Below are positions 17,790 to 38,703 of a stretch of 64,000 bases of DNA, one piece after another (positions within the stretch are counted from its first letter, which is position 1; each line of letters opens with the position of its first letter). A program made the position numbers and the translations under genes. The notes beneath the pieces are model-generated. The model saw only the letters and a program-made list of their open reading frames with translations, searched no databases and had not been told where the DNA came from. Source of the stretch: Clostridia bacterium (GTDB lineage Bacteria; Bacillota; Peptococcia; DRI-13; SM3-B62); assembly GCA_018433675.1 (NCBI GenBank), contig JAHDQS010000002.1, forward strand, positions 24,884 to 88,883, written 5' to 3'.

Positions 17790-18728
17790 GTGAGAAAAAC
17801 TACCTATCTAAAAAAATTGTTGAGCTCAAAAGAAATACTAGTAATGCCTGGGGCATATGACTGCCTTTCCGCTAAGATTATAGAAAAAGTCGGTTTTAAG
17901 GCTATTCAGTGTTCAGGTTATGGTTTTGCAGCCTCCTTACTTGGTAAACCGGATATAGGATGGATGTCTTTCAATGAGGTTCTGGAGCACACGAAAAATA
18001 TTGTTAATAGTGTTGATATTCCGGTTATGGCCGATGGAGATACAGGGTATGGCAATGTGGTTAATGTTATTCGTACTGTACAAGAATTTGAAAAAATTGG
18101 TGCTGCCGGAATAAATCTGGAAGATCAGGTTTGGCCAAAACGTTGTGGACATATGGCAGGTAAAGAAGTTATTTCTATAGAGGAGATGTGTAACAAGATA
18201 AAAGCCGCTGCTTTTGCACGTCAGGATAAAGATTTTGTTATTAATGCCCGTACCGATTCTCGAGCAATATATGGACCGGAGGAAGCTGTGCGTAGAGCTG
18301 AGGCATATTGGGAAGCAGGTGCTGATCTGATATTTTTAGAAGCCCCCCAGTCTGTTGATGAATTAAAATATTATGCTGAAGAATTAATTTCCAAGGGGAT
18401 ATTATTAAGCGCCAATATGTTGGATGGCGGTAGGACGCCGCTTGTCACATTCGAACAACTGCAGGAAATGGGATACGCTAGGTGCAGTGTGCCTGTAATG
18501 ACGATATATGCAGCGGCAAAAGGAGTTATGGATGCCGTGAGTCAATTAATGGCCGACGGGACCAATACCAATCTGGGAGATAAGCTTATTGCATTCAGCG
18601 AATTCAATAAACTGATTGGCTTGCAAGAAATAAGAGAATTAGAAGAAAAATTTCTTTCGGAAGATATTATTATAAATAAATATGGGACTGTGGAAAAGTT
18701 GCGGGAAGAAAAGGCACTGGGCAGATAG
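17790..18728 (+). CDS. Isocitrate lyase/PEP mutase family C-C lyase (2-methylisocitrate or 2,3-dimethylmalate lyase-like)
   Basis: PGAYD, SGYG, DGDTGYG, EDQ..PKRCGH, ARTD. Confidence 0.9.
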   Translation: MRKTTYLKKLLSSKEILVMPGAYDCLSAKIIEKVGFKAIQCSGYGFAASLLGKPDIGWMSFNEVLEHTKNIVNSVDIPVMADGDTGYGNVVNVIRTVQEFEKIGAAGINLEDQVWPKRCGHMAGKEVISIEEMCNKIKAAAFARQDKDFVINARTDSRAIYGPEEAVRRAEAYWEAGADLIFLEAPQSVDELKYYAEELISKGILLSANMLDGGRTPLVTFEQLQEMGYARCSVPVMTIYAAAKGVMDAVSQLMADGTNTNLGDKLIAFSEFNKLIGLQEIRELEEKFLSEDIIINKYGTVEKLREEKALGR

Positions 18729-18743
18729 AACGGGGACGAGTTC

Positions 18744-18827
18744 ATGGTTAAATCAATTGTTGAAAAGATAATTTCTGCAGAGTCGAGCCATGATGCTACC
18801 GGATCTTTGGCTTTTGGCGCCTTTTAA
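18744..18827 (+). pseudogene. LeuC/DmdA-type dehydratase large subunit relic
   Basis: MVKSIVEKII...HDATGSLAFGAF* resembles the LeuC N-terminus (TIxEKI; HDxTGP); rest deleted. Confidence 0.6.
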
Positions 18828-18832
18828 GAGAT

Positions 18833-19135
18833 GAAAATTTAGGTTGAGGCTCCTTAAGGGAATATGCGCCTTTAGTTATAAAACTAGCCGGAATTTCGGT
18901 AGTGATAGCCAAACCATGTGCCCGGATATTCTTTCATAAAGCTGTGAATTTGGGACTTCCTGTGTGACGTATGACACAATAAGAATAGGGGAAGGGATAT
19001 TCTAAAGATATATTTAACAAAGGGCTCAGTTATAAAAGCTGATTCCCTTCTTGAATATATTGCGGATAATTCACGAGGATGGTATGGTGCAGTGTCTAAA
19101 GAAGTATGGATCGGGAGTGCTCAAGGAAATAATTA
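18833..19135 (+). pseudogene. LeuD/DmdB-type dehydratase small subunit relic
   Basis: [43 protein letters not shown] matches LeuD NFGCGSSREHA...IAKSFARIFxRNAxNxGLP; internal stops and frameshifts. Confidence 0.75.
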
Positions 19136-19272
19136 AAGAATGGAAAAGTTTTGTTTTAAGACTATAGTAGCCTTAGTAGCAAACAAACGAGTCTATATTC
19201 CTAAATGGGGGTGATAGAGAATGTCATAGGGTAGGGTACTCAATATTCAAAAAAAGTGGGGGTGAAGAAAAA

Positions 19273-20352
19273 ATGAAAAAGAGTAGACTGATACGATCGA
19301 TTTCAATGTTTTTAGTTCTTTGTTTTAGTATTATGATGCTGGCAAGTTGCGGTACCGAATCGGCAGAGGAAACAAAATCGCAGGAACAGTACACTTTAAG
19401 GATGTTTTCCGCGGGTGAAACTGGTATGACTTATGCTTCAATGTCCGCTATTACAGCCATGATCAAAAACCATAAACCTGAGATATGGAAAAGTACCAGT
19501 GCTATACCTTCCTCAGGTCCTTATGCCGGGTTCAGAGCAATACAAAGTGGTGAGGGTGAGGGGACATATTCAAATGTAGGCCAAATGGTTGAACTGTGGA
19601 CTGATACAGGGAACCTAGCCAAAGATCCAATCCCTAAAGAGAAAAAGGCATTAATGGGTCCCTGTCTCTGGGAACACCAAAATGTCCTTCTCGCCAGGTC
19701 AGACAGGGATGATATAAAAAGTGTATGGGATCTGAAAGGGAAAAAGGTTTGTCCCACCCTTCCCGGATATGTCACGGAAGTAGTGTCCTTAATGATCCAT
19801 GATGAATTGGATATTCCTGTTGAGATGGTCTATGTAGAGATGGATGCGATCTGCGATGCTCTTAAAGATGGAATAATCGATGCTTCGTGGGGTTATGTTC
19901 TATCCGGTGGGGGGGTTCCTGCTTGGATGTCGGAACTTGAATTAAGGATGGATGCTAAGGTAGTTCCTTTTTCAAAAGAAGATGCAGAGTTAATTGCCAG
20001 TAAAGTTAAAGGTGTAGCAGCACAGACGATAAAGTTAAGCGATTTTTCTTCAAAGCTTGAGGGACCCAACGAACAATATTCACCGGTTCTTGGTACGTAC
20101 TGGGTCTTCTCGCCTGATCTGTCCGAACAGGCGGTATATGAAATTATGGTGGCCCTTTATGAAAACAGGAAAGAGGTTGGAGAAGTGCACCCGGCCCACT
20201 GCGTATGGGCAGAGGATGCTTTGGGGATTCAGGAAAAGTATGTTGAGTCAGCAGCACAGGCGGGAGTACCTATTCATCCCGGTTTTGCCAAATGGCTCAA
20301 AGAGCAAAATGTGTGGCACGATAATTGGATCGTGGGTTCGGTAAATAAATAA
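19273..20352 (+). CDS. TAXI-family TRAP transporter solute-binding lipoprotein
   Basis: Lipobox LASC; DIKSVWDLKGKKV; DALKDG.IDA; C-terminal VPIHPG. Confidence 0.85.
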   Translation: MKKSRLIRSISMFLVLCFSIMMLASCGTESAEETKSQEQYTLRMFSAGETGMTYASMSAITAMIKNHKPEIWKSTSAIPSSGPYAGFRAIQSGEGEGTYSNVGQMVELWTDTGNLAKDPIPKEKKALMGPCLWEHQNVLLARSDRDDIKSVWDLKGKKVCPTLPGYVTEVVSLMIHDELDIPVEMVYVEMDAICDALKDGIIDASWGYVLSGGGVPAWMSELELRMDAKVVPFSKEDAELIASKVKGVAAQTIKLSDFSSKLEGPNEQYSPVLGTYWVFSPDLSEQAVYEIMVALYENRKEVGEVHPAHCVWAEDALGIQEKYVESAAQAGVPIHPGFAKWLKEQNVWHDNWIVGSVNK

Positions 20353-20360
20353 ACATAGCG

Positions 20361-20418
20361 GGAAAAGCCTTCAGTAAGTTAGGAGAGTTTTTGTTTGGAT
20401 AATACTGAAGGCTTTTCC
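20361..20418 (+). other. 16-bp stem-loop between SBP and permease genes (mRNA stabiliser or attenuator)
   Basis: GGAAAAGCCTTCAGTA / TACTGAAGGCTTTTCC perfect inverted repeat. Confidence 0.65.
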
Positions 20419-20476
20419 TAAAAAAACCTCGAAACTCGAAGTAGTTTCTCCACCTGCATAAAAGGAGGGAACATTA

Positions 20477-22447
20477 ATGGAGCAGCGAAAAAAAGATTTT
20501 TCACAGAAAATAATAATTGCACTTAGCTGCGTACTTTCTTTTGCAACAATACTTTATTCGCTAACATTTTTCGCCACGCGCGCTAAGTTCACTGCTACAG
20601 CACTTCCCATAGCGTTGGTTATAACAATGCTTAACTTGTATTTCAATAGTAATAAGTTTAAACCCAGACCTTGGAAAACGGTTTTAATTTGGATAGTTAC
20701 CATTACGATGTTGCTTTCGGTTCTTTATTATTGGACAGTGTTCTATGAGATGCTCCAATCTAGAGTCGCAAACTATAACAATTTAGATTATTTCTTTGTA
20801 TTTCTGACGATCCCCTTGGTTATATACCTTTCATTTAAAGCTTTGGGACCAGTTTTCGGTACAGTAATCTGTTTGCCATTTTTTCTTATTGTTTTTGGAG
20901 AATATTTACCTGAACCATTTACAATCGGTAAGATGGGCTTTGTCAGATTCCTTGGTTCTATTAGTTTGGATTTGGGCGGTATTTGGGGATCGCTAACACA
21001 GGCTATGGCTACCTATGTTGGTATATTTGTTGTATTTGCCGCTGTGGTAAGAGGCTTCGGCGGTCTTGAAAGTCTTATTGCCTTTTTCGTAAGGTTGCTT
21101 GGCAAACATGAGGTGTTATTTCCTCAGATTGCCACCATTTCAAGTATGATGTTCGGTTCGTTTTCAGGCAGTGCTATTGCAAACGTAGCAGGCACCGGGA
21201 CATTCACCATCCCAATGATGAAAATGAGGGGTATGAAGCCTGAAGATGCAGCCGCTGTAGAAACTATAGCTTCTACCGGGGGGGGGATAATGCCTCCGAT
21301 TATGGGAGCGGCGGCCTTTATCATGGCTGAACTGCTGGGTACCAGTTACTTAAATATCATAGCTGCCGGTATCCTTCCTGCTCTTGTATTTTACCTTACT
21401 ACGTTCTTAAGCACATATTGGATTAGACTGCGTCAAATGCGGCAAGAAGCTAAGAGCATGATAGAAAAGGATGAGAGTCAGCTTGAAAAAAGGATGGCGG
21501 AATTGGATAAAATGTATGATCCCACAATCTTGTGGTGTTTAGTAGCTACTCTTGTTGTGCTGATGTTCTTGCTTCTGACAGGGAGCAGCATCCTTGTGGC
21601 CGGTGGACGTAGTATCCTTGCATTTTACGGTTTTTACCTAATTAAACTAATAGTATCTCAAGTTGCTTCTTATAGAAAAGAGCCTAAGGGAAATATTATG
21701 AACAATATAAAGTCATGTGCGGTAACCTTTATAAAAGGAAGTATCAATGCTTTAAATGAAGCAGGAAAAAGCGCCTCCGAAGTTATCCTGTTGGGGGCGG
21801 CGTTGGGTATAATTTCGAGTACGCTTATGCGAACTGGACTATTATACAAATTGGGGACTGAACTGGTGCGCTTAGCGCAGGGTGAACCGTACTTGTTGCT
21901 ATTGGTGACCGTAGTATTATGCGTTCTATTAGGTATGGCTGTTTCAGGGCTGGCGACGTACCTGCTGGTGGCACCAATTGTTGTGGCAGCCTTTAAAACA
22001 GTCGGGATTGAGCCGTTAACAGCTCATTTTATTGTATTCTATGGTTCAATGCTGGCACCGATTACTCCGCCTATTGCGCCGGCCGCTGCGGTGGCGGCAA
22101 ATTTGGCACAGGCTAATTTTGTAAAAACATGTAAAGCGACCCTCATATTGTCCGTGGGATTAACAATGATGCCGTTGATCTTTTTAAATTTTCCATCTAT
22201 TTTGCATTTAGATTACTTAACGTCTTTAATAATGCTGGGGGCAATGTTTCTGATGTCAACGGGATTATATGTGGAATTCAAGGGTATGAAAAAAATACCC
22301 AACTTCCTGTTGTGCGTATTAGGGGTGTCAATGATGATAGTCCACTATCCCGTATATGTTAGTATAACTATTTCTTTGTGCGCATTTCTGCTCGTTATAT
22401 ATGGCATAAAAAATGTTGGCATGATTCGGATTTTCGGTCAAGAGTGA
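20477..22447 (+). CDS. TRAP transporter fused (4TM/12TM) permease
   Basis: SGSAIANV..TGTFTIPMMK, ASTGG.IMPPIMGAAAF, ITPPIA. Confidence 0.92.
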   Translation: MEQRKKDFSQKIIIALSCVLSFATILYSLTFFATRAKFTATALPIALVITMLNLYFNSNKFKPRPWKTVLIWIVTITMLLSVLYYWTVFYEMLQSRVANYNNLDYFFVFLTIPLVIYLSFKALGPVFGTVICLPFFLIVFGEYLPEPFTIGKMGFVRFLGSISLDLGGIWGSLTQAMATYVGIFVVFAAVVRGFGGLESLIAFFVRLLGKHEVLFPQIATISSMMFGSFSGSAIANVAGTGTFTIPMMKMRGMKPEDAAAVETIASTGGGIMPPIMGAAAFIMAELLGTSYLNIIAAGILPALVFYLTTFLSTYWIRLRQMRQEAKSMIEKDESQLEKRMAELDKMYDPTILWCLVATLVVLMFLLLTGSSILVAGGRSILAFYGFYLIKLIVSQVASYRKEPKGNIMNNIKSCAVTFIKGSINALNEAGKSASEVILLGAALGIISSTLMRTGLLYKLGTELVRLAQGEPYLLLLVTVVLCVLLGMAVSGLATYLLVAPIVVAAFKTVGIEPLTAHFIVFYGSMLAPITPPIAPAAAVAANLAQANFVKTCKATLILSVGLTMMPLIFLNFPSILHLDYLTSLIMLGAMFLMSTGLYVEFKGMKKIPNFLLCVLGVSMMIVHYPVYVSITISLCAFLLVIYGIKNVGMIRIFGQE

Positions 22448-22488
22448 AAGAACAGGCCATAAAACTGTAATGTTGGAGGTATTCATAC

Positions 22489-23013
22489 ATGGATTTAAGT
22501 GGTAATAAACAGGAGAGGATTAAGCGAGTTTCAAAAAAGGCAGGAGACTATGAAGAATTAACAGGGAATTGCGCTCAAGGGCCACTAGCGGCGCTGCAGG
22601 AAGAATTTAACTTGGGCGGTGGTACAGAGATGCTTAAAGCGGCTGTCCTTTGCCCAGGGGTTGCCAGTCACAAGGGAACCTGCGGTGCTTTACTGGGCGG
22701 ACTGATGGCATTGGGTATGGCATACTGCCGGGACAACATTCTTGACCCGGATTGGAATACCCCGGAGGCAATGGAAAAATACTATGCTGACCGAAAGAAG
22801 GCGTACGAGTTCTATGAAGCTTTTAAAAACGAGTTCGGTAGCACAACATGCGGTGAGATCCGTTGCTTATTAATGGGTAGGGATTATGACACGCTGTATA
22901 ATCTTGAGGACAGGAAACAGTTTATTGAAGATGGAGGCAGGTTAAAGTGCCGTATTCCCCCTGAAACTTCCGCGCGACTTGTTGCTGAAATGCTGCTTGA
23001 GGGTAAGGAATAG
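22489..23013 (+). CDS. C-GCAxxG-C-C family putative redox protein
   Basis: NCAQ, GTCGALLG, FGSTTC, C-terminal C. Confidence 0.85.
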   Translation: MDLSGNKQERIKRVSKKAGDYEELTGNCAQGPLAALQEEFNLGGGTEMLKAAVLCPGVASHKGTCGALLGGLMALGMAYCRDNILDPDWNTPEAMEKYYADRKKAYEFYEAFKNEFGSTTCGEIRCLLMGRDYDTLYNLEDRKQFIEDGGRLKCRIPPETSARLVAEMLLEGKE

Positions 23014-23057
23014 TTAGATAGTAGTTACCACAAGCGAAGTTCGGATGGAAGAAAAGA

Positions 23058-23745
23058 ATGACAATTTTTTCGACGTCACATGAGCAGGGGGCACTTGGAA
23101 CATATTACGTTTTCCAAAATTTAAAACCAGGGACAGACGCTTTTGACCCGGGGAATGTCATTGTTTTTACCGGCATTTCCGACATATATACGGTATGCAG
23201 AGCTAACGAGCTGTGCAGTAAATATTCTCTGATACCATTCCTGCCGGATTATCCATAGCTTTTGCCGTGGATTGCTATGTGAAAAGGAATTGGCGATTTT
23301 TTGGCGGAAGACGTAAAAAATGTCCCAAAAGCTGGGCACGAAGGCCCAAAAACTGGCTGCCGATTCAAGCTGATGGGGATCTACAAGTCTTTGGAGATTG
23401 ATGAGCTAGGACCTAAGAAAGTAAAATGCTTTTCTCAATTGCCTCCTGTTTTTAGTATCTACAGTTGTTTAGATGTCTGTATATTCGTCATGGCGACGGC
23501 TCGTGCACTCAACTTTAATGAACTGGGTAGCCGCAGGTTTAGTTAAAGAAGATAATCTTTTGCCGCTATGTGGGTATGAACCAATGATTGGCGGGAGTAT
23601 AGACGGTAAAAAGATTGACCGGATAGAATATCAAAGAGCGCTGGCTATGGCAAATGAGCTTGCCGACTGGGACGAGAATGGCAAGCTCAGGAAATCTGGG
23701 ATGGGTGAGCCTAGCCTTGACTGGGTTGCTGAAAAATTTGCGTAA
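23058..23745 (+). pseudogene. Heavily deleted tungsten/molybdenum aldehyde:ferredoxin oxidoreductase (AOR) relic
   Basis: Fragments in different frames: PGTDAFDPGNVIVF (N-term), VCRANELCSKY (middle), SCLDVCIF, EDNLLP...WDENGK...SLDWV (C-term). Confidence 0.7.
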
Positions 23746-23774: not shown

Positions 23775-24959
23775 ATGATCGTGAATTATCCATTTGATGT
23801 GACATCTTACGAAACACATACTAGGATTATTTTGGGCTTTGATAGTATAAAAATGCTTACCCCTGAATTAAAAAACATTAAACCTAAGAAAGTTATGGTA
23901 ATGTGCGGTAGTAATATCAAAAAAACAGGGTTCTATAGTAAATGCATTGAGTATATTATACAAGCCGGTTTCCCGTATGTCATTTTTGACGAAGTATTGC
24001 CCGAAGTCCCGGTATCGGTTGTAATGAAAGCATGTGAGGTCATTAAAAAAGAAGGTTGCGAATTGCTGATAGCAATAGGCGGAGGAAGCTGTATCGATAC
24101 GGCTAAAGCAGCCGGGGTAGTTGTAACTAACGGCGGTAAACCGCAGGACCATGCCGGTTATGAGCAATATAAAATACCTCCGATACCGTTTATTGCAATA
24201 CCTACAACAGCAGGTACCTCTTCCGAAGTAACTTCTATGACAGTGATTAATGATGAGGAAAACAAAGTAAAATTCACGATCGGACATAAAGAACTGGGTT
24301 GCTCAAAAATTGCGATCCTTGATCCCCAAGGTTTGGAAAGTTGCCCGCCAAAGGTAGTTGCCGAAGCAGGTTTCGATGCGTTTACCCATGCTTTCGAATC
24401 TTTTATTTCTTTAAAGGCTAACCCCCATACAGAAGCACTTTCTTTGCAGGGGATAAAACTTATCAGTGAAAACTTGCGGCCATTATATGCAAACCGAAAA
24501 AATATTCACGCGGCATCGAATATGCTTGCTGGCTCTACTATGGGCGGAATGGCTTTTACGACTACAGGTTGTGGAAACGTTCACTGCATAGGAAGGCATG
24601 TAGGTCCATTGCTGCATGTAAGCCACGGTCTTGCTGTTGCTATGGTGTTGCCTGCCGTAGCCCGTTTTAATTACCTGGCCTGTCCTGAGAAATTTGTTCA
24701 AATAGCTCAGGCAATGGGTGAAGATGTTCGGGGACTTTCTGTGTATGAAGCTGGCAAAAAGGCCATCAAGGCTATAGAGGAATTGTGTTCTGATGTCAAT
24801 TTGCTGAAAAAGATGAAGGATTTTGGTTGCAAGGAAGATGATTTTGAACCGTTGGCACAGGACTGTTGGAATGTGTATGAAAGGCATTATCAATATATTA
24901 ATCCGCGTCAGACAACTAAAAATGACTATATTGATATCATTAAAGATGCCTATATGTAG
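23775..24959 (+). CDS. Iron-containing alcohol dehydrogenase
   Basis: GGGSCIDTAK, PTTAGTSSE, DAFTHAFE, H...SHG. Confidence 0.92.
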   Translation: MIVNYPFDVTSYETHTRIILGFDSIKMLTPELKNIKPKKVMVMCGSNIKKTGFYSKCIEYIIQAGFPYVIFDEVLPEVPVSVVMKACEVIKKEGCELLIAIGGGSCIDTAKAAGVVVTNGGKPQDHAGYEQYKIPPIPFIAIPTTAGTSSEVTSMTVINDEENKVKFTIGHKELGCSKIAILDPQGLESCPPKVVAEAGFDAFTHAFESFISLKANPHTEALSLQGIKLISENLRPLYANRKNIHAASNMLAGSTMGGMAFTTTGCGNVHCIGRHVGPLLHVSHGLAVAMVLPAVARFNYLACPEKFVQIAQAMGEDVRGLSVYEAGKKAIKAIEELCSDVNLLKKMKDFGCKEDDFEPLAQDCWNVYERHYQYINPRQTTKNDYIDIIKDAYM

Positions 24960-24991
24960 TTTATAATAAATAAGAGGGAGACCGACTATGT

Positions 24992-25291
24992 ATGAGTGGG
25001 GAAAAATACTATATCTCAATAGTCGATGCGGCTAATTCTGTTGTTTTTGTGCGGGCGGAGGAACTCGGACTTGCGGGGATAGAAATGCCGTGGGAAGTGG
25101 AAAGAAGACCGGATGCAAAAAGGATTATGGATCTGGCGGAAAGAATAAGAGGAACAGTAGCGACTCTATGCCCTGCTCTACATAAAGTAGGTTTTTATAT
25201 AGTTCCGACAACGTATGCGGATGCAACGGGACGTGTTGTTCAGCCGAACAGATTGATCTGGTCGGAAGGTTGGGTTTATATTCAGAAATAG
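24992..25291 (+). pseudogene. Internal fragment of a PrpF-family isomerase
   Basis: SIVDAANSVVFVRAEELGLAGIEMPWE...IRGT aligns with SFVDAANPVVFVRAELFGLTGTEMPWE...IRGT in the intact copy at 37537; lacks N- and C-termini. Confidence 0.8.
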
Positions 25292-26701: not shown

Positions 26702-27343
26702 ATGCAGACCCCTAAACAATGGCATGCCGAAACCATTGGGCGAAGGATGGTTGAGGTGCTTAAAAAAAATAACTTTTATGCTCACTATGTGGCTTCAAAG
26801 GAAGAGGCAGCGCAAAAAGCGCTTGCTTTGGTTGGAGAGAGTCAAAGTATAGGCGTTGGCGGATCTGTTACCATAAGGGAATTAGGTATTATAGAACGGC
26901 TGGAGCAGGAAGGCAAAGAGATTCTTGACGCAACCGTACCTGGTTATTCACCCGAAGAGAACATTGCAATTCGCCATAAGCAGTTTATAAGTGACTGTTT
27001 TCTTTGTAGCACCAATGCTATAACTTTAGACGGTAAATTGGTGAATACGGATAGTACCGGAAACCGCGTGGGGGCAATGGCGTTTGGACCTAAAAAGGTA
27101 GTTATCGTGGCGGGTACTAATAAAATTGTTAAGGATATGCAAGCTGCTATGGAGAGAATAGAAATGTATGTTGCGCCGATGAATAATAGGCGTATGAACA
27201 GGTCGACACCATGTACTCAAAGCGGTATGTGCATAGACTGTTCAAGTGATATTCGTTTATGTAATATCACTACAATAATTAAAAAACAGCCCCCTCGTTC
27301 CAACATTAACATAATTATTGTCGGAGAAGAACTTGGATATTGA
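26702..27343 (+). CDS. LUD-domain (lactate utilisation LutC/YkgG-like) protein
   Basis: GGS.T, STNAIT.DG.LVN.D..GNRV, C-terminal PC...G.C.DC...R.C, GEELGY. Confidence 0.85.
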   Translation: MQTPKQWHAETIGRRMVEVLKKNNFYAHYVASKEEAAQKALALVGESQSIGVGGSVTIRELGIIERLEQEGKEILDATVPGYSPEENIAIRHKQFISDCFLCSTNAITLDGKLVNTDSTGNRVGAMAFGPKKVVIVAGTNKIVKDMQAAMERIEMYVAPMNNRRMNRSTPCTQSGMCIDCSSDIRLCNITTIIKKQPPRSNINIIIVGEELGY

Positions 27344-29461: not shown

Positions 29462-29493
29462 CTATATATAATCATAAGTAGGGATATACATTG

Positions 29494-29829
29494 ATGAAAA
29501 AGGAACCTAATGCTCGTTCAGTGGAACGAGCATTAGATATTTTGAATTGTTATGGCAAAAACCAGAAATATTCTTTAGAACCCAAAATTGCACAGTTAGG
29601 GATGCTTTGCTTTTCCAACCTCGATTTTAGAAATATTGCGGAGCCTTATATGGTAAGACTGCGTGATTATTACAATGAGAGTGTAAGCTGATATATTGTC
29701 CAGGGTGATGATAGGGTATGTGTGGAAAGGGTAGAAAGCACTCAGCCTTTAGGAAGGGTAATTAATGTTGGCGACTGCTTGAATTTGACCGGAGAAGCCT
29801 CAGGCAGAGTGCTTTTGGCTTATTTATGA
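29494..29829 (+). pseudogene. IclR-family regulator pseudogene (paralog of 34737-35486)
   Basis: RSVERALDILNC followed by HTH deletion; in-frame TGA at 29689, then YIVQGDDRVCVERVESTQPL...ASGRVLLAYL*. Confidence 0.85.
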
Positions 29830-29891
29830 AGGGAAAAAATAAAGGAAGTACTAGATAAATTGCGATAACCACACACACAATGTGATGTGCC

Positions 29892-30197: not shown

Positions 30198-30659
30198 ATG
30201 ACCAAAGAAGTTGTTTCAATAGAAGAGATGTGCAACAAAATTAAGGCAGATGCTAGGGCTGTCTACGGCTCCGAGGAAGCTGTTCGTAGGGTAGAGGTCT
30301 ATTGGGAAGCAGGGGCTAACCTGATCATTTTAGAGGCCCCGAAGTCGCTGGAAGAGTTGGAATACTATGCTAAGACTCTGGTGCCAAAGGGTATTATGCT
30401 AAGCGCCAATATGCTGGATGGAGGAAGAACACCGCTGGTAACGTTTAAGCAGCTTGAAGAGATGGACTTTTCAAGCTGCAGCGTGCCTGTAATGATTATA
30501 TATGCGGCTGCTAAAGGCGTAATGGATGCTGTGAGCCGGCTTATGGCTGATGGAAAGAATGCCAACCTTGGTGATGGGTTGATTACTTTTAGCGAATTCA
30601 ATAAGTTAATCGGTTTGCATGAGATTAGAGACTTGGAAGAAAAACAGCTAGGTAGATAG
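30198..30659 (+). pseudogene. 5'-truncated, internally deleted duplicate of the ICL/PEPM-family lyase
   Basis: Near-identical to the C-terminal half of 17790-18728 (SIEEMCNKIKA, LSANMLDGGRTPLVTF); lacks KRCGH loop and N-terminus. Confidence 0.88.
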
Positions 30660-31310: not shown

Positions 31311-31506
31311 CTGAAGGTAAATGACAACGATTTTGTTTTCGCCGGACCATTCTTCTATCCGTTAAAAATTACTAGTGGATAGCATCTTGGAAAATTTGAC
31401 TGTTTATCGACTATAAGCTTATGATTTGCGTTTGTTTAAGTATAATAAGCATAAATAAATAAGAGAATATAGCAGGAATTATAAGAAAGTGAAAGAAGGG
31501 GAAAAA

Positions 31507-34338
31507 ATGCAGCTTAGAAAAATATGGCTTAATATTAATGGCGTGGATAGAATGCTGGTATGCAATCCTGAAAAAGATACGTTGGCTGAAGTGCTCAGAA
31601 GAATCGGATTAACAGGGGTGAAAATTGGATGCGATACGGGTCAATGTGGTTCATGCACAGTTATGTTAGATGGTGTTCCTGTTAGGAGCTGTGTAAGGAA
31701 AATGAAATCCGTGCCAGAATATGCAAAAATTATAACGATTGAAGGCATTGGTACACCCCAGCATCTTCATCCGCTGCAGATGGCGTGGATCACCTATGGC
31801 GGGGTGCAGTGCGGTTTTTGCACACCCGGCTTTATCGTGTCCGCAAAAGCGTTGCTTGATGTTAATCCAGCTCCTTCCAGGAAAGAGGTGCGTGCGTGGT
31901 TTCAGAAGCATCGCAATGTTTGCCGTTGCACGGGATATAAGCCTTTAGTTGATGCTGTAATGGCTGCCGCTGAAGTAATGCGCGGCGAAAAGACCATGGA
32001 AGACATTACTTGGAAATCAGGTGAAAGTGATGATATATATGGTACTCGTTACCCCAAACCGACTGCAGTGGCAAAAGTTACCGGGCTCTGTGATTTTGGC
32101 GATGATATCGCGCTGAAAATGCCTGCCGGTACTTTGCATTTGGCAATTGTGCAGCCCAAGGTTTCCCATGCGAAAATTTTGAATATCGATTTTACTGCAG
32201 TAGAAGCGATGTCCGGTGTTGTCAAGGTCATTACCGCCAAAGATATTAAAGGGACGAATATAGTTACGGGCGGAACGAAACATCCACGTGCAACTTCTGA
32301 TACGAAGCTTAAACCAATAATTTGCGGTGATAAAATTTACCGTTATGGGGATGTGGTTGCGGTTGTCGCCGCTAATACCAGAGAAGAGGCCCGAACTGCA
32401 GCAGAAAAAGTGGTTGTTGAATTTGAAGAATTGCCGGCTAATATGACAGCATTGGAATCCCTGGCGCCCGGAGCGCCGCAAATTCATTCGCAAACCCCGA
32501 ATATTTATGGGATACATCGTGTGACTAAGGGCGAAGATACTCGCAATATTATTCCAAAGGCTGAATATGTGGTGGAAGGCAGTTTCCATTCTTCCCGCGA
32601 ACCGCACTTGCCGATTGAGCCTGATGTCATGCAGGCCTACTGGGATGAAGAAGGCAGGATTACGATTCAGTGTAAGAGCCAGAATATTCATGGCAATAAA
32701 AACGCAATCGCTGACGGTATTGGGTTGCCGCCTGAAAAGATACGCATCATTCAAAACCCTACCGGAGCTAGTTTCGGTTATTCCATGAGTCCCACTGGGT
32801 ACGCGCTGGTGGCGGCATGTGCCATGGCGGTAGACGCTCCGGTGGCATTGACCATGTCTTATCCTGAGCACCAGGCTTTCAGTGGCAAACGAGCTCCGTC
32901 ATATACGAATGCCCGTCTGGCCTGTGATGAAGATGGCAAGATTATCGCTCTTGAATATGATATGGTTTTGGAAAGCGGTGCTTATCCGGAAACGTCCATG
33001 AAATTGGCGGATAAAGCCATTCGGTTTATTGGCAATCCCTATAATGTCCCGAATATTAATGGCATCTGCAAATCTGTTTTAAGCAACAATTCCTTTGGCG
33101 TTCAGTACCGCGGTTATGGTTCGCCACAAAGTTATACTTCCTCCGAAGCGCTTATGGACATGATGGCGGAAAAAATCGGCATGGACCGCTTCGAATTTAG
33201 GTACCTTAATATTGCGCGTCCCAATGATTTAACGGTCAACAGTTATCCCTATCGTGAATATCCAATGCAGGAAATGATGGATATTATTCGTCCTTATTAC
33301 AAGGAAATGGTGGGCAGAGCCAAAGCCGAAAGCACAGAGACAATAAAACGTGGTGTTGGCATCGTTTGGGGCGGCTATCATGTGGGTTCGCCCAAAGACA
33401 AATGCGAGGTTGAGCTGGAACTCAACCCGGACGGCAGCATTACGCATCTGAATTCTTGGGAACAGATGGGGCAGGGCTCAGATACTGGTACTCTTGCCCA
33501 TACCCATGCGGCTCTGCGCCCATTGGGGATTACCCCAGATCAGATCAAGCTTGTACAAAACGATACCGCGATTACGCCGGTAACAGGTCCTGCGGCAGGT
33601 AGCCGCTCGCACTATATGGCTGGCAACGCAACCATCCTTGCCGCGAATGCGTTGATGGATGCAATGCGCAAACCTGATGGCAGTTTTCGGACATATAGCG
33701 AAATGGTCGCCGAAGGTATTCCTACTAAACATATGGGTGTATCCGACACTATTGACAACACGATTCCGATAGATCCCGATACAGGTCACGGCAATGCCTC
33801 GCCGGAAGCCAACTATCTGTTAATGCTGATGGAAGTCGAAGTCAACCTGCAAACATGCAAAACAAAAGTGCTATCTGTAAAGGCGGTTTCCGATATCGGC
33901 AAAGTTGGCAACTTATTGGCGGTGGAAGGACAAGCTTATGGCGGTCTTTCTCATTCAATAGGTTTTGCACTCACTGAGGATTACAGTGATTTTAAAAAGC
34001 ATTCCACACTGCAGGGTGCCGGTATTCCCAATATTGAAGATGTTCCTGACGATATCGAATATATATTCCATGAAACTCCGCGGGAACGAGGACCGCATGG
34101 CTCCAGTGGCTGCTCTGAAAGTTATCAAAGTGTGGGTCATATGGCGATTATTAACGCCATCTATGATGCGATCGGAGTGAGAATTTATGAATTGCCCGCT
34201 ACGCCAGAAAAAATCAAAGCAGCTTTAGAGGCAAAAGCGCGTGGAGAAGAATTGAAGCCGAAGAAATATTTTTTAGGCGGCGATTTCTACGAAACCTTTG
34301 ATTACATTAAAAACAACCCGCTAAAAAAACAGGAATAA
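31507..34338 (+). CDS. Molybdopterin aldehyde oxidoreductase, xanthine oxidase family (Desulfovibrio Mop type; 2x[2Fe-2S] plus Mo domain, no FAD domain)
   Basis: GCDTGQCGSC..C, QCGFCTPG..CRCTGY, GASFG, YRGYG.PQ, MGQG, VEGQ, GCSE; ATG 31507 after GAAGGGG. Confidence 0.92.
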   Translation: MQLRKIWLNINGVDRMLVCNPEKDTLAEVLRRIGLTGVKIGCDTGQCGSCTVMLDGVPVRSCVRKMKSVPEYAKIITIEGIGTPQHLHPLQMAWITYGGVQCGFCTPGFIVSAKALLDVNPAPSRKEVRAWFQKHRNVCRCTGYKPLVDAVMAAAEVMRGEKTMEDITWKSGESDDIYGTRYPKPTAVAKVTGLCDFGDDIALKMPAGTLHLAIVQPKVSHAKILNIDFTAVEAMSGVVKVITAKDIKGTNIVTGGTKHPRATSDTKLKPIICGDKIYRYGDVVAVVAANTREEARTAAEKVVVEFEELPANMTALESLAPGAPQIHSQTPNIYGIHRVTKGEDTRNIIPKAEYVVEGSFHSSREPHLPIEPDVMQAYWDEEGRITIQCKSQNIHGNKNAIADGIGLPPEKIRIIQNPTGASFGYSMSPTGYALVAACAMAVDAPVALTMSYPEHQAFSGKRAPSYTNARLACDEDGKIIALEYDMVLESGAYPETSMKLADKAIRFIGNPYNVPNINGICKSVLSNNSFGVQYRGYGSPQSYTSSEALMDMMAEKIGMDRFEFRYLNIARPNDLTVNSYPYREYPMQEMMDIIRPYYKEMVGRAKAESTETIKRGVGIVWGGYHVGSPKDKCEVELELNPDGSITHLNSWEQMGQGSDTGTLAHTHAALRPLGITPDQIKLVQNDTAITPVTGPAAGSRSHYMAGNATILAANALMDAMRKPDGSFRTYSEMVAEGIPTKHMGVSDTIDNTIPIDPDTGHGNASPEANYLLMLMEVEVNLQTCKTKVLSVKAVSDIGKVGNLLAVEGQAYGGLSHSIGFALTEDYSDFKKHSTLQGAGIPNIEDVPDDIEYIFHETPRERGPHGSSGCSESYQSVGHMAIINAIYDAIGVRIYELPATPEKIKAALEAKARGEELKPKKYFLGGDFYETFDYIKNNPLKKQE

Positions 34339-34402
34339 TTATTTTATTTGCAGCGTTGTGAAGTTGTACTTTGCCCCAAATTAGCAAATATAGGGACTGC
34401 TA

Positions 34403-34431
34403 TTGACAACTCCAAATTATGTTAGTATTTT
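34403..34431 (+). promoter_or_regulatory. Putative sigma-A promoter for leader-iclR-acn-prpF
   Basis: TTGACA(34403)-17-TATTTT. Confidence 0.5.
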
Positions 34432-34482
34432 AATAGTGTCAAAGATACATCTGTACAAAAATAAAAAATAGTTTTAAGTTGT

Positions 34483-34646
34483 GGGGGACGATCTGGAGTA
34501 TAGGCGGTCGATGTGGCTATGATAGCGAATAGTTGTTAGGATAGCGTTACCTGCGTGATGCCGGTCTGGCGTTTGCGAAGTTGCGGCGCCCGCCATACTT
34601 ACAGTAGCGTTTCTGTGAAAGGCTGAAGTAAGATCGTCCTTTTTTT
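34483..34646 (+). ncRNA. Unidentified structured RNA (candidate cis-regulatory leader or sRNA)
   Basis: GC-rich stretch in AT-rich intergenic DNA; GGACGATCT/AGATCGTCC closing stem followed by T7; nested GAGTATAGGCGG/CCGCCATACTT helix. Confidence 0.55.
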
Positions 34647-34736
34647 CTGTGTTGCTTTGAAATGGCCGGTTGTGCTTGCAGGCGGCAAACAGCTTTTCAT
34701 ATGGGCTAGTTTACAGTTAAAGAAACAGGAGTGATA

Positions 34737-35486
34737 ATGATGCTTGAGAAAGACGCGAATGTGCGCTCTGTAGAACGCGCGATAGATATTTTGAATTGTT
34801 TTACAAAAGAGCGGCTTGCATTGACTTTGACTGAGATTTCAAAGCAAGTAGGGTTAGCCCCGAGTACTGCTTTACGCATAGTGACTACGCTTGTAAACAA
34901 CAATTTTCTTGCCAAGAATGAAGAAACTCAAAAGTATTGTTTGGGCTACAACATTGCGCAGTTAGGTTTACTCTGTTTTTATAATATGGACTTAAGAGAC
35001 ATATCAAAGCCTTATATGTATAGGTTGAAAGATATCTATAATGAGAGTGTTAGCTTGTATACCACGCAAGGAAATTACAGAGTATGCATTGAAAGGATTG
35101 AAAGCACACATCCACTGCGGAGGGTAGTAAATATAGGCGATAATCTACCATTAACGCGAGGCGCATCCGGTAGGTTATTGTTGGCTTATATGGAGAAGGA
35201 AGTAATAAGGTATCTGCTTGAAGATGATCCTTATACAACAGAAGAGGCAATTGTCAGAGTGCGCCAGCTGGGTTATGCTGTGAGCCAGGGAGAACGTGAG
35301 GAGGGTGTTACATCAATTGCCGCCCCTATTTTTAATGCGCAAAATAAAGTGATCGCTGCTTTGAGCATATCCGGTCCGTCAATAAGATTTGCAGAGGAAG
35401 AAATGCCGGAGAGAATTAACAGCGTTAAGGAGTGTGCAGAAAAAGTCTCCCTTGAACTAGGACATAAAAAAGAACACAGTTATTAA
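34737..35486 (+). CDS. IclR-family transcriptional regulator
   Basis: VRSVERAIDIL, HTH (LTEISKQVGLAPSTALRIV), GASGRLLLA, GYAVS.GE..EGVTSIAAPI. Confidence 0.95.
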   Translation: MMLEKDANVRSVERAIDILNCFTKERLALTLTEISKQVGLAPSTALRIVTTLVNNNFLAKNEETQKYCLGYNIAQLGLLCFYNMDLRDISKPYMYRLKDIYNESVSLYTTQGNYRVCIERIESTHPLRRVVNIGDNLPLTRGASGRLLLAYMEKEVIRYLLEDDPYTTEEAIVRVRQLGYAVSQGEREEGVTSIAAPIFNAQNKVIAALSISGPSIRFAEEEMPERINSVKECAEKVSLELGHKKEHSY

Positions 35487-35597
35487 AAAGCCCAACAACT
35501 GTTTGACAAAAACCGTACTCTCGTTCTGATGGAACACGCGGCGTCTTTTGGCGTTAAACTATCAGAATTGTCAAGGTATCGATAGGAGATGAGAATC

Positions 35598-37544
35598 ATG
35601 GGTCAGCACATATTTTGTAAGATTATAGATGCGCATAAGGTGTCCGGCGAGCTCCAAGTCGGCAAAGAAGTAGCTATCAGAATAGACCAGACATTAACAC
35701 AGGATTCATTGGGCGCAATGGCCTATTTGCAATTTGAGGCAATGAAGAAAGAAAAGGTCGAAACCGAGTTGTCGGTTTCCTATGTCGATCACTTGATGCT
35801 GCAATTGGGAGAAGGCAATGGAGATGTACATAGATATCTTGAAACTGTTGCCGACAGGCATGGTATTGTTTACTCCAAGGCTGGTAATGGAATTTGCCAT
35901 CAGGTGCATCTTGAACGTTTTTCCCGGCCGGGGAAAACACTTATAGGCAGTGACAGCCACACGGTAACCTGCGGAGCCGTTGGTATGGCGGCATTTGGTG
36001 TGGGCGGGCTGGATGTGGCGCTGGCAATGGGAGGCGTACCCTTTTATTTCACATACCCCCGTGCTATCCGCGTCGTGCTTGAAGGGGAGTTGGCTCCCTG
36101 GACAACCGCTAAGGATATAATCTTGGAATTGTTAGGCCGTATTACGACAAAGGGCAATGTAGGTACCATTATCGAGTACAGCGGATCGGCGTTAAAGAGC
36201 CTGAATGTACCCCAACGAGCTACGATAGCCAACATGGGTGCAGAGGCCGGTATTACTACTTCTATTTTCCCCAGTGATGAAATGACGCGGGCCTTTTTCA
36301 GAGCCCAAGGCAGAGAACAGGATTGGCTCCCCTTGGAATCCGACCCGGACGCCGAATATGATAAAGAAATAGTTCTTAATTTGGCGGAAATTGAGCCCAG
36401 CGTTGCGATTCCCCATTCCCCGGACTTTGTTAAGAAAGTTAGAGAAATAGAGGATTTGAAGGTTAATCAGGTACTTATCGGAAGCTGCACGAACTCGTCT
36501 TATCAGGATATGATGCGGACAGCGTTGATATTAAAGGATAAAAAGATTTATCCGGATGTAGAACTTGGAATTTCTGCGGGCTCCAGGCAGGTGCTTTCCA
36601 TGCTGGCAGAAGTCGGTGCGCTTGGCTGGATGATAGACGCGGGGGCTCGTATTCTCGAAAGCGGCTGCGGGTTCTGCGTAGGGCAAGGGCAGGCGCCCGA
36701 AAAAGGTGCGGTATCGATACGTACCAACAATCGCAATTACAAAGGCAGAAGCGGAACTCAGGATGCAAAAGTCTATCTGGTAAGCCCGGAGACAGCTGCT
36801 GCCACAGCACTAGCCGGCGTGTTGACCGATCCTAGGACGATGGGGATGGATTACCCGAATGTACAGATGCCGGAAAAGTTTAAGCATGATGACAGTATGT
36901 TTCTGTTTCCTACTGGTACTAAGAAGATATATCGAAGTTCACTCATTGGTGAACCGCCGATCAACACACCAATGCCAGAATCCTTCGAAGGCAAGGTTGC
37001 AATCAAGGTAGGTGATATGATAAACACGGATGATATTATCCCCGGTGGCCCTGCCATGACATTCCGTGCGAATATACAGAAATCGTGTGACTTCGTTTTT
37101 CAGTTTATAGATGAAGAGTTCCCCGAAAACTGTGCAGCAATACGTGAAGAGGGTCGTTCTCCCATAATAGTAGGAGGTGTCAGTTATGGACAGGGGTCTT
37201 CACGGGAGCATGCCGCCCTTTGTCCGATGGTAATGGGAGTACGCTGTTTGCTGGCAAAGAGCATTGAACGAATCCATCAAGCCAACCTGATTAATTTTGG
37301 TATATTGCCGTTGCTTTTTGAAAACGAGGCGGACTATGAGCACATAGGCCAGGGAGATATTATTTCTATCGAAAATATTCACAATGCTGTTTTGCGGGAT
37401 CGTGTATCAGTTGTCAATAAAACAAAGAATGAAACCTATATCACAAAGAACGGTACGACCGAGCGGCAGCGCTCCATTATTCTGGCAGGTGGGCTGCTCA
37501 ACTCTATTAGAAATAAACAAGAAAGCAGGGATCTATATGTATAA
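35598..37544 (+). CDS. Single-chain aconitase-family hydratase (about 650 aa, LeuC+LeuD-like domains)
   Basis: GICHQ, GSDSHT, IGSCTN, CGFCVG, NRNYKGRSG, NTDDIIP, YGQGSSREHA; alternative start 35589. Confidence 0.92.
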   Translation: MGQHIFCKIIDAHKVSGELQVGKEVAIRIDQTLTQDSLGAMAYLQFEAMKKEKVETELSVSYVDHLMLQLGEGNGDVHRYLETVADRHGIVYSKAGNGICHQVHLERFSRPGKTLIGSDSHTVTCGAVGMAAFGVGGLDVALAMGGVPFYFTYPRAIRVVLEGELAPWTTAKDIILELLGRITTKGNVGTIIEYSGSALKSLNVPQRATIANMGAEAGITTSIFPSDEMTRAFFRAQGREQDWLPLESDPDAEYDKEIVLNLAEIEPSVAIPHSPDFVKKVREIEDLKVNQVLIGSCTNSSYQDMMRTALILKDKKIYPDVELGISAGSRQVLSMLAEVGALGWMIDAGARILESGCGFCVGQGQAPEKGAVSIRTNNRNYKGRSGTQDAKVYLVSPETAAATALAGVLTDPRTMGMDYPNVQMPEKFKHDDSMFLFPTGTKKIYRSSLIGEPPINTPMPESFEGKVAIKVGDMINTDDIIPGGPAMTFRANIQKSCDFVFQFIDEEFPENCAAIREEGRSPIIVGGVSYGQGSSREHAALCPMVMGVRCLLAKSIERIHQANLINFGILPLLFENEADYEHIGQGDIISIENIHNAVLRDRVSVVNKTKNETYITKNGTTERQRSIILAGGLLNSIRNKQESRDLYV

Positions 37545-38703
37545 ACCAAACACCAAAATTCCGTGTGTTTATATGAGAGGCGGCACCAGCAAGGCGTGTT
37601 TCTTCCATGACAAGGATATTCCTAAGGACCCTGCCCAAAGAGACAAGGTGATTTTAAGTGCATTCGGGAGTCCTGACCGTCGTCAAATAGACGGTATGGG
37701 CGGTGCTGACACTTCAACAAGTAAAGTTGCCATAATCAGCAAGAGCGAGCGTGAGGGCGTTGACATTGATTACGATTTCGGCCAGGTTAGTATTGACTTA
37801 CCGATTGTAGGTAAAACAATGAACTGCGGAAACATCTCCTCGGCTGTAGGCCCCTTTGCCATTGATGAAGGATTGGTTGAAGCGGTGGAACCGATAACGG
37901 TTGTCCGTATATTCAATACCAATACCAATAAGAGGATAATTGCGCATGTTCCCGTTAAGGACGGCAAAGCGCTGACTGAAGGGGATTTCCATATAGATGG
38001 TGTTCCTGGTACCGGTGCTAAGATTCGCCTTGAATTCCAAAATCCTCAGGGCTCCGTATCGGGAAAGCTGCTACCTACAGGAAATCCTAAAGATACTATC
38101 GAGATTGAGGGTAAAACCTACGAATATTCTTTCGTAGATGCTGCAAACCCTGTGGTTTTTGTCCGGGCAGAACTGTTCGGGCTTACTGGGACAGAAATGC
38201 CCTGGGAGTTCGAGGCTCGTTCGGATGCCAAGGAAATATGCCGCATACTTGAGATTATTCGGGGTACCTGTGCAATAAAAATAGGACTTGCCAGCAGTCT
38301 TGAGGATGCTGCGGTCAACAGCCAAACCCTTCCCAAGATACTGTATTGTACAGAGCCCAAGGATTATACCTCTGGCAGCGGCAAAGAGATTAAGAAAGAA
38401 GACGTTGATTATGTAGGACGTATGTTCTCATTAGGCATGAAAATGATTCAAGCTTACATGGGTACTGGCAGTATTTGCACCATTGTTGCCGCAAATACTG
38501 CCGGTACAATAGTAAATGACATTTTATGCAAAGATAAGGCGGGGCACAAGGTAAAGAAGGTTCGCATAGGACATCCTTTCGGTATTATGGAAGTAGAAGC
38601 CAATTTGGAGGATATGGATTGTGGCGGCCACATTGTAAAATCCGGAATACTGGGAAGAACTGCAAGAAGAATCATGGAAGGATACGTTTATGTTCGTGAT
38701 TGA
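37537..38703 (+). CDS. PrpF/methylitaconate isomerase family protein
   Basis: MRGGTSK, RQIDGMGG..STSKV, NCGN, HPFG, RTARRIMEG; ATG overlaps aconitase 3' end. Confidence 0.92.
   Translation: MYKPNTKIPCVYMRGGTSKACFFHDKDIPKDPAQRDKVILSAFGSPDRRQIDGMGGADTSTSKVAIISKSEREGVDIDYDFGQVSIDLPIVGKTMNCGNISSAVGPFAIDEGLVEAVEPITVVRIFNTNTNKRIIAHVPVKDGKALTEGDFHIDGVPGTGAKIRLEFQNPQGSVSGKLLPTGNPKDTIEIEGKTYEYSFVDAANPVVFVRAELFGLTGTEMPWEFEARSDAKEICRILEIIRGTCAIKIGLASSLEDAAVNSQTLPKILYCTEPKDYTSGSGKEIKKEDVDYVGRMFSLGMKMIQAYMGTGSICTIVAANTAGTIVNDILCKDKAGHKVKKVRIGHPFGIMEVEANLEDMDCGGHIVKSGILGRTARRIMEGYVYVRD

Follow-up and report, generated by a model that had tools for sequence, protein, structure and literature searches.

To our knowledge, the known breakdown of branched or unsaturated C5-C6 polycarboxylates is either aerobic and dependent on coenzyme A (CoA) or proceeds via citrate lyase. 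Compounds of this kind, among them itaconate, citraconate, mesaconate, the aconitates and methylcitrate, occur abundantly in plants, fungi and inflamed host tissue. We analyzed a 64,000-nucleotide stretch of contig JAHDQS010000002.1 from a Clostridia bacterium, probably a wastewater anaerobe (the whole stretch is hereafter called the window), in which an island of about 21.4 kb encodes putative isomerase, hydratase, lyase and aldehyde redox enzymes together with an importer. In our reading, to which we assign a probability of about 0.5, this island represents two related copies of one uncharacterised catabolic gene set which would import an unsaturated or branched di- or tricarboxylate and cleave it without CoA.

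The lower nicotinate fermentation of Eubacterium barkeri, reportedly set out by Alhapel et al. in 2006, employs Mgm/MgmL, Mii, DmdAB and Dml. As in the island, a delta-isomerase of the PrpF family is joined by a LeuCD-type hydratase and then an ICL-family lyase, a CoA-free series that gives pyruvate and a short acid. The island, however, has no B12 mutase or reactivase and adds a PrpD-like protein, an iron-type alcohol dehydrogenase (Fe-ADH), an aldehyde oxidoreductase of either the tungsten-type aldehyde:ferredoxin (W-AOR) or the molybdenum Mop type, a TAXI-TRAP importer, a LUD-domain protein and an AbrB-duplication protein. The petal death protein of carnation has broad 2-alkylmalate lyase and oxaloacetate hydrolase activity; its KxCGH loop and DGDTG metal motif align with those of the island lyase, although it is a plant enzyme without an operon context. 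The 2-methylcitrate cycle, with its PrpD route and AcnD/PrpF route (PMC5690661), draws on the PrpB, PrpD, aconitase and PrpF families and follows the same logic of dehydration, isomerisation, rehydration and cleavage, but the island has no methylcitrate synthase or PrpE and its host is an anaerobic fermenter with eight PrpD paralogues.

According to passages of PMC3035267 (citing Hartel and Buckel 1996), the fermentation of trans-aconitate and citrate by Acidaminococcus fermentans passes through citrate, oxaloacetate and pyruvate and relies on aconitase-domain proteins, carriers of the MatC type and citrate lyase. This too is an anaerobic, CoA-free breakdown of an unsaturated tricarboxylate by aconitase-domain proteins and a C-C lyase, and it resembles the CitDEF-type sister clusters of the PrpD-like subfamily described below, but the window has an ICL-family lyase in place of citrate lyase and adds the PrpD-like protein and the pair of alcohol dehydrogenase and aldehyde oxidoreductase. 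The itaconate/methylsuccinate cluster of Pseudomonas and Cupriavidus contains an MmgE/PrpD (S)-(R)-methylsuccinate isomerase, as described in part of PMC12290011. In this catabolic cluster the substrate of an MmgE/PrpD enzyme is a free C5-branched dicarboxylate, and the carboxylate-binding and catalytic His/Lys residues are common to both proteins; unlike the island, that cluster is, in the same part of the source, CoA-dependent and aerobic with other partners, and the window protein has Ile at the Tyr position as judged by alignment with IDS epimerase. We also considered the tarRAB trans-aconitate system of Bacillus velezensis, which a section of PMC11495376 describes as the LysR-type TarR, the MFS importer TarB and the PrpF-family aconitate isomerase TarA, and rejected it as an architecture for the island, which has IclR and TAXI-TRAP; only the isomerase family is common. 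A search of the open-access literature (PMC, bioRxiv) found no description of the gene set; a preprint on riboflavin degradation that it brought up mentions none of the genes by name.

The island corresponds to a block of DNA at 17358-38765 which is extra in the window relative to the same-genus genome G001. On nucleotide alignment the flanks of this block were 92-94% identical between the two genomes, and in G001 the homologue of window open reading frame (ORF) 38799-40238 (orf479) comes immediately after the metallophosphoesterase gene, with no block between. One 24-nt stretch of G001 aligned with both ends of the block and is present once in G001 and twice in the window, as direct repeats. 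Judged from this alignment the block is an accessory island, and either gain in this lineage or loss in G001 would fit. An earlier note on this DNA, made from the letters alone, had grouped positions 17790-38703 as one pathway; as these coordinates coincide with an insertion relative to a congener, the grouping is not an arbitrary cut. No integrase or transposase domain was found among the island ORFs using Pfam, the 24-nt repeat has no further copies elsewhere in the genome, and the island DNA is not repeated elsewhere in the genome apart from its own paralogues. The island aconitase and Mop are extra paralogues, 52% and 55% identical, respectively, to second copies in the genome which are of the type common to G001.

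All island genes considered here lie on the + strand and 13 of them are intact by Pfam and NCBIfam, and every intact domain named in the earlier note was present on that strand. Relics were mapped by probing the window with the proteins of an intact operon in G003, a genome from another family of the same order. We refer to 17790-29461 as Part A and to 29491-38703 as Part B. The features are:

17334..17357, no strand: direct repeat, left copy, TGTAGAGATATTGATTAACTTCAG, at the 3' end of the metallophosphoesterase gene, 23/24 bases as in the right copy
17790..18728, +: ICL/PEPM-family C-C lyase, 312 aa, intact, petal-death-protein-like (PF13714, 191.6 bits)
18821..19140, +: relic of LeuD, the small hydratase subunit (71% and 61% identity to residues 56-103 and 144-171 of G003 LeuD)
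19273..20352, +: TAXI-family TRAP solute-binding protein, intact (TIGR02122, 94.8 bits, cut-off 84.35; 76% identity to the G003 copy)
20477..22447, +: fused TRAP permease, intact (TIGR02123, 330.4 bits, cut-off 320.65; 70% identity to G003)
22489..23013, +: C-GCAxxG-C-C family protein, intact (71% identity to the G003 copy, which is directly upstream of W-AOR)
23088..23736, +: W-AOR relic, three fragments matching residues 36-64, 325-527 and 550-629 of the 631-aa G003 protein
23775..24959, +: Fe-ADH, intact (73% identity to G003; 47-51% to copies beside Mop in loci L063, L075 and L069)
24980..25291, +: PrpF relic, 5' half lost and two internal deletions (87-91% nucleotide identity to metagenome contig L104)
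25313..26668, +: MmgE/PrpD-family (PrpD-like) protein, intact, with both Pfam domains (true PrpD models 43-45 bits)
26702..27343, +: LUD-domain protein, intact (73% identity to G003; L104 and L057 also have it 3' of the PrpD-like gene)
27408..28427, +: AbrB-duplication membrane protein, putative carrier, intact (51% identity to the G003 operon copy)
28478..29461, +: old yellow enzyme (OYE) flavoprotein (PF00724, 258 bits)
29491..29856, +: relic of an IclR regulator (matches residues 4-164 of the intact window IclR at 46% identity)
30204..30650, +: second lyase, more divergent, present as a relic (matches residues 125-289 of the intact copy at 71% identity, with one TGA and one TAA inside the match)
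31489..34338, +: Mop-type molybdenum aldehyde oxidoreductase, intact, accessory paralogue (NF045668, 1236.8 bits, cut-off 1100)
34731..35486, +: IclR-family regulator, intact (57% identity to IclR of the G046 cluster, L060, and 44% to that of Enterocloster L064)
35589..37544, +: single-chain aconitase-family hydratase, 651 aa, intact, accessory paralogue (PRK07229, 843.6 bits)
37537..38703, +: PrpF-family isomerase, intact, 388 aa from ATG 37537 (80-83% identity to L059, L060 and L064)
38766..38789, no strand: direct repeat, right copy, TGTAGAGATATTAATTAACTTCAG, 23/24 bases as in the left copy

Since the window copy is a decayed patchwork, the clean exemplar of the gene set lies elsewhere, in G003, where the source names of the PrpD-like protein (P0004) read 'Peptococcaceae bacterium'. 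There 13 gene types form one tight co-directional run: a sigma54 activator with a PrpR_N sensor, TAXI, TRAP permease, C-GCAxxG, W-AOR, Fe-ADH, lyase, LeuC, LeuD, PrpF, PrpD-like, AbrB and LUD, with a -24/-12-like element upstream of the TAXI gene. The lyase and PrpD-like proteins of the two genomes are 81% and 68% identical. Set against this operon, the window reads as two related, partly decayed clusters fused together and not as one clean operon. Part A is, by this comparison, a rearranged G003-type operon in which the lyase and the LeuD stump have moved ahead of the transporter genes and AOR, LeuCD and PrpF are dead, while Part B, on the same basis, comprises the IclR relic, lyase relic, Mop, IclR, aconitase and PrpF, one lyase and one IclR having been lost. 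This second module, and not the original operon, is where the aconitase and Mop belong. Relics of both LeuCD and AOR had been proposed; those of LeuD and AOR were found as described, but no LeuC remnant was detected in the island with the G003 operon proteins as probes, and the IclR (29491-29856) and second lyase (30204-30650) relics had not been listed.

The two origins are also visible in a FastTree phylogeny of 32 PrpF sequences. The PrpF of L104, whose C-terminal 238 residues are uninterrupted where the window relic is without 37 nt and 245 nt of the L104 sequence, grouped with the G003 copy. The intact PrpF of the window grouped with copies adjoining single-chain aconitases, the nearest being that of L060 (83% identity, local support 95).

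Each function that is present twice keeps one intact copy, the lyase in Part A and the hydratase, isomerase, aldehyde oxidoreductase and IclR in Part B. The two clusters are therefore read as doing the same job, and the pattern suggests that selection kept one full set. With one intact gene for each function, the pathway probably still runs in the window. The alternative that the island is metabolic debris, in which recombination of two clusters broke the pathway and the intact ORFs are either not yet degraded or serve unrelated moonlighting roles, seems to us unlikely, but it draws on several observations. Five relics lie within 21 kb, the sigma54 activator and promoter of G003 are missing here, the congener lives without the island, and about 830 bp between the lyase relic and Mop (30660-31488) have no protein, RNA-family or repeat match. 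In addition, OYE matches the NamA model only to position 319 of 339 and its gene ends 30 bp before the IclR relic, and the protein may be short at its C-terminus. Other evidence opposes decay of the whole. The intact genes that we compared are of the length of their homologues, OYE being the possible exception, and for every lost function the island holds an intact analogue. In comparison with L104, the PrpD-like gene had a dN/dS ratio of 0.19 and the LUD gene, over its first 91 codons, one of 0.12, so that both genes which could be compared are under purifying selection. The true start of PrpF is probably ATG 37537, which gives a length like that of its homologues and overlaps the aconitase stop codon; this overlap of the two genes suggests translational coupling.

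The combination of families raised the question of a plain 2-methylcitrate cycle (PrpB, PrpD, AcnD or Acn, PrpF) for propionate. All four protein families are present and the G003 activator has a PrpR_N sensor domain, but we regard such a cycle as very improbable. Island proteins scored below the NCBIfam equivalog cut-offs for prpB (274.5 vs 354.4), prpD (43.4 vs 458), prpF (319.1 vs 440.55) and AcnD (139.5 vs 1419.85). No citrate synthase lies in the window, in line with the earlier note's statement that methylcitrate synthase is absent, and the only citrate-synthase-family gene of the genome is on contig C44 among unrelated genes, beside a malate/lactate dehydrogenase gene. It scored 706.9 as a PRK14032 citrate synthase (cut-off 426), while the methylcitrate synthase models gave 259.9, 210.1 and 205.9 against cut-offs of 421.3, 550 and 479. 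As the enzymes did not group with the PrpB, PrpD or AcnD models and there is no prpC elsewhere in the genome, the gene set differs from a plain methylcitrate cycle.

The lyase itself has a PEP_mutase fold with the metal site present, and its WPKRCGHM loop and SGYG and DGDTGYG motifs align with those of the petal death protein. We take the loop cysteine to be the catalytic residue of this family. Among solved structures its best relative was the petal death protein (1zlp, 244 bits over residues 2-289); it gave approximately 165-177 bits against the methylisocitrate lyases and 160 bits against dimethylmalate lyase. For PrpF the order of solved relatives was 3-methylitaconate isomerase (3g7k, 328 bits), PrpF (2pvz, 271 bits) and oxalomesaconate isomerase (208 bits). 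Matches to the PEP_mutase and PrpF families over cut-off were found in this genome only in the island.

As 3g7k is Mii, and the same three enzyme families are present, the island could be viewed as a remnant or variant of the lower nicotinate pathway (Mii, DmdAB, Dml), in which dimethylmalate is split to propionate and pyruvate. The relatives G001 and G002 do carry such genes as one cluster, consisting of LeuC, LeuD, a 615-621-aa B12-domain protein, PrpF, MutL and lyase (L036 61-6910 on G001 contig C58; L037 576-7618). We consider this origin improbable for the island. No B12-binding or MutL domain was found in the island, and in agreement with the earlier claim that methyleneglutarate mutase is missing, Pfam detected no B12 mutase domain among the 25 ORFs of window 15448-49846. 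An IQ-TREE phylogeny of 16 lyases placed the window, G003 and Enterocloster copies in one clade (support 98/99), joined by the lyase of Oscillospiraceae locus L080 (100/99), which lies beside LeuCD and a PrpD-like gene; all four of these lyases adjoin hydratase or PrpD-like genes. Eight MutL-adjacent lyases formed a separate clade (96/98) and are 48-53% identical to the window lyase. Similarly, the nicotinate-type PrpFs of G001 and G002 fell outside a 27-row clade in the FastTree phylogeny which contains the window copy. Both trees hold genome-derived sequences, with no experimentally characterised reference in either, and among those sequences the lyase and PrpF are thus outside the mutase-linked, nicotinate-type clades. 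Moreover, the PrpD-like, ADH and AOR genes have no role in the nicotinate pathway, and G001 has a nicotinate-type cluster yet no island. Xanthine-dehydrogenase-like genes are found approximately 10 kb upstream of the nicotinate-type cluster in G001. In G003, approximately 9 kb downstream of the operon, L034 471-4124 encodes a protein of 1217 aa that has a B12-binding domain at its N-terminus and a MutL reactivase domain at its C-terminus; its neighbours are octopine-dehydrogenase-like, DctM, peptidase C26, AtuA and SSF genes.

The PrpD-like protein was examined against solved MmgE/PrpD family members, among which IDS epimerase was the best match (143 bits), followed by B. subtilis IRG1 and the cis-aconitate decarboxylases. 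Part of PMC12290011 lists the residues of this family that bind the 1,4-dicarboxylate and the catalytic histidine, and gives the second base of the two-base enzymes as Tyr145 (IDS epimerase) or Tyr148 (methylsuccinate isomerase). Residues H86, E89, H100, H151, K201 and K265 of the PrpD-like protein align with H85, D88, H99, H150, K198 and K266 of IDS epimerase, while the second base Tyr145 of the epimerase (2hp3) stands opposite Ile146, a residue conserved to at least 90% across our alignment A1 of 30 subfamily members. When compared to ACOD1, for which residue roles together with those of CadA and the lid Tyr318 (Phe in Aspergillus) are given in PMC13495696, His103, His159 and Lys272 align with H100, H151 and K265; Tyr318 falls opposite Ser311, in a gapped stretch of a weak 94-bit alignment. 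Since the dicarboxylate-binding and catalytic residues are kept while Tyr145 is replaced by Ile146, the PrpD-like protein would be expected to carry out one-base chemistry at C2, decarboxylation or dehydration, and not epimerisation.

Orthologues of the PrpD-like protein are few near the host. Within the order (34 genomes, own included) the only one is that of G003 at 68% identity, others being at most 37% identical, and in the class 3 of 88 genomes had a match at E <= 1e-100, namely the host, G003 and G046 (46%). In the protein database 240 of 8000 scored candidates reached E <= 1e-40, with identities from 83% down to approximately 35% among the 120 matches listed, and a scan of metagenome contigs matched one short contig. 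Using alignment A1 (30 PrpD-like relatives) as query we obtained 47 loci from named genomes. We analyzed 34 of these (L057-L090; best-segment identity 33-57%), which span Bacillota, Synergistota and other phyla and include six shorter than 10 kb; the other 13, with best segments mostly 23-32% identical and often partial, were set aside.

PrpF was encoded in 25 of the 34 loci, at least 60% identical to the window's in 23 of them, and an aconitase-family hydratase in 18 (5 single-chain, 13 LeuCD); both occurred together in 16. An IclR regulator was present in 8 loci and an ICL-family lyase in 2. From these counts, PrpD-like protein, PrpF and hydratase therefore make up the conserved core. ORF clustering with Pfam further identified a nitroreductase-family protein (17/34 loci), a LysR regulator (15/34), CoA-transferase III (11/34), CitE (10/34), CitF (7/34) and an HMGL-like lyase (6/34). 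The enzyme of C-C cleavage varies with the locus and may be an ICL-type lyase, CitDEF, or CoA-transferase III with an HMGL-like lyase; carrier and regulator vary as well. The island aconitase is 64-78% identical to the copies beside PrpD-like and PrpF genes in L059, L060 and L064. In the last of these, an Enterocloster metagenome-assembled genome (MAG), IclR, PrpD-like, aconitase (78%), PrpF (80%) and lyase (71%) lie together, an enzyme set as in the window. The 13-gene run of G003 and the recurrence of the core across phyla bear out the earlier note's view of the combination as a functional neighbourhood. Of its proposal of one pathway system, the recurring core stands and the single clean operon does not, the window being a composite with five pseudogenes. 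The Synergistales MAG L057 encodes two near-identical PrpF copies at 1093 and 6719 (branch lengths 0 and 0.006) with three PrpD-like genes, OYE and LUD. The PrpF of L074, labelled Paludibacteraceae (Bacteroidota), is nearly identical to that of L076 from an uncultured Clostridium, with branch lengths of 0 and 0.015, and the two loci resemble each other in gene order, which points to mis-binning or very recent transfer.

Mop comprises Fer2, Fer2_2, hammerhead and two MoCo-binding domains with no FAD domain (Pfam). Fe-ADH with a molybdenum or tungsten aldehyde oxidoreductase lies beside the core in five loci, namely the window, G003, L063, L075 and L069. It is conceivable, though less likely even than decay of the island, that two independent functions with no common substrate lie here side by side, one for alcohol or aldehyde oxidation with TAXI-TRAP and the other an acid isomerase-hydratase-lyase module. 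Among the 34 sampled loci, Fe-ADH and Mop accompany the PrpD-like/PrpF core in only 3 (two Synergistota, one Oscillospiraceae), only G003 and the window yielded TAXI, C-GCAxxG and AOR homologues of this type, and no chemistry ties an aldehyde to the known PrpD, PrpF, LeuCD or ICL-family reactions. Yet in both Synergistota loci (L063, L075) the genes are interleaved in the order Fe-ADH, PrpF, Mop, PrpD-like, and in G003 Fe-ADH and the lyase belong to one co-directional run and are just 65 bp apart. The pairing recurs in three lineages (Peptococcaceae-like, Synergistota, Oscillospiraceae), with W-AOR or with Mop, and no Fe-ADH adjoins either of two other Mop paralogues whose flanks could be read. 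We regard the association of the redox pair with the core as real, because of the interleaved order in Synergistota and the lack of an ADH neighbour beside the other Mop paralogues.

If the island does encode one catabolic gene set, as we prefer to read it, the following order of reactions can be proposed, none of which would involve CoA. A carboxylate would be imported by TAXI-TRAP; the solute-binding protein gave matches of 25 bits at most to solved TAXI proteins, too weak to suggest a ligand. A hydroxymethyl or aldehyde precursor would be converted to the acid by Fe-ADH and then Mop. The PrpD-like enzyme would deprotonate C2 of the 1,4-dicarboxylate backbone and, by one-base decarboxylation or dehydration, yield an alkene di- or tricarboxylate, in which the Mii-like PrpF would move the double bond to a maleate-type position. 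After addition of water by the aconitase-family hydratase, the petal-death-protein-like lyase would split the resulting 2-hydroxy acid into a 2-oxo acid (pyruvate or glyoxylate) and a short acid. As substrate family we would guess first at aconitate, itaconate or citraconate, with a route through citramalate to pyruvate and acetate. Citramalate or its CoA ester, or else citrate or isocitrate, could be cleaved by each of the three systems seen beside the core (ICL-type lyase, CitDEF, CoA-transferase with an HMGL-like lyase). Comparative genomics makes an undescribed CoA-free pathway of isomerase, hydratase and lyase plausible.

Several points weigh against this reading. The substrate and the order of the steps are what we infer only, and by its score the aconitase is an ordinary aconitate hydratase, for which a tricarboxylate would be a better fit than citraconate. 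In its alignment with pig mitochondrial aconitase most of the active-site residues known to us align, and the stretch with the gamma-carboxylate-binding residue is unaligned. The redox pair, being found in so few of the sampled loci, is outside the core. The retention of one intact copy of each function is statistically weak, since for 5 losses among 10 genes it has a chance probability of 32/252 (~0.13). In other genomes the cluster corresponding to Part B has its own PrpD-like gene and transporter, which are absent here without relics. Neither the sigma54 activator nor the -24/-12 element of G003 is present in the island; a search for sigma54 -24/-12 sites found no intergenic site in the island. 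Its matches at 20303-20329 fall within the TAXI coding sequence, and the G003 TAXI gene has a similar one close to its 3' end. A palindrome search in six upstream regions of the island found no shared operator. The window-type lyase clade is rare, with no member among 400 other genomes sampled from the phylum at E <= 1e-115. Five pseudogenes in 21 kb amount to active decay, and the island may be partly or wholly inactive.

A wider proposal, which we put forward only tentatively and hold to be doubtful, is that gut, rumen and digester Bacillota and Synergistota have a widespread, undescribed anaerobic route for acids of the aconitate, itaconate or citraconate type, with PrpD-like protein, Mii-like PrpF and aconitase-family hydratase at its core. 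The PrpD-like protein would be the one-base decarboxylase or dehydratase feeding bond shift, hydration and cleavage to pyruvate and acetate, the window and G003 versions would be fully CoA-free, and W-AOR would be interchangeable with Mop, LeuCD with single-chain aconitase, and one PrpF lineage with the other. The gene set recurs in gut, rumen and digester anaerobes of several phyla, and its MmgE/PrpD subfamily and PrpF clade have no assigned reaction. Assignment of the substrate would add a catabolic pathway of anaerobes and a function for a large orphan subfamily of enzymes, and might account for the removal of itaconate or aconitate by gut anaerobes. For bench work the G003 operon is the better starting point; the window is mainly useful as a natural experiment, in which two merged clusters with reciprocal losses amount to a natural complementation test.

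The genome of the host (3.0 Mb) encodes eight MmgE/PrpD paralogues, twice as tandem pairs (contigs C56, C5, C7, C6 and C26; loci L107-L111). Their neighbours include TctABC transporters, class I fumarase-type subunits, citrate-lyase-like CitCEFX, glutamate-mutase-like MutL/MutE/MutS, AcnX, LarA-like and RraA-like aldolase genes, and this genome thus holds a large set of orphan acid-catabolic clusters.

Promoter and terminator scans gave matches at chance level, and Rfam searched over the whole window identified only a tRNA gene at 15478-15551 (67.7 bits), with no riboswitch upstream of Mop or elsewhere. The tRNA gene sits within called ORF 15448-16209; because of this, and as the ORF has no Pfam match, it is probably not a real gene. 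On the minus strand at 12875-13617 two adjacent TauE/SafE ORFs of 121 and 125 aa each correspond to one half of the 237-position profile. The window opens (2-2252) with a LigB-AMMECR1 fusion and then a radical SAM protein, after which comes a complete operon for arginine biosynthesis (3587-12866).

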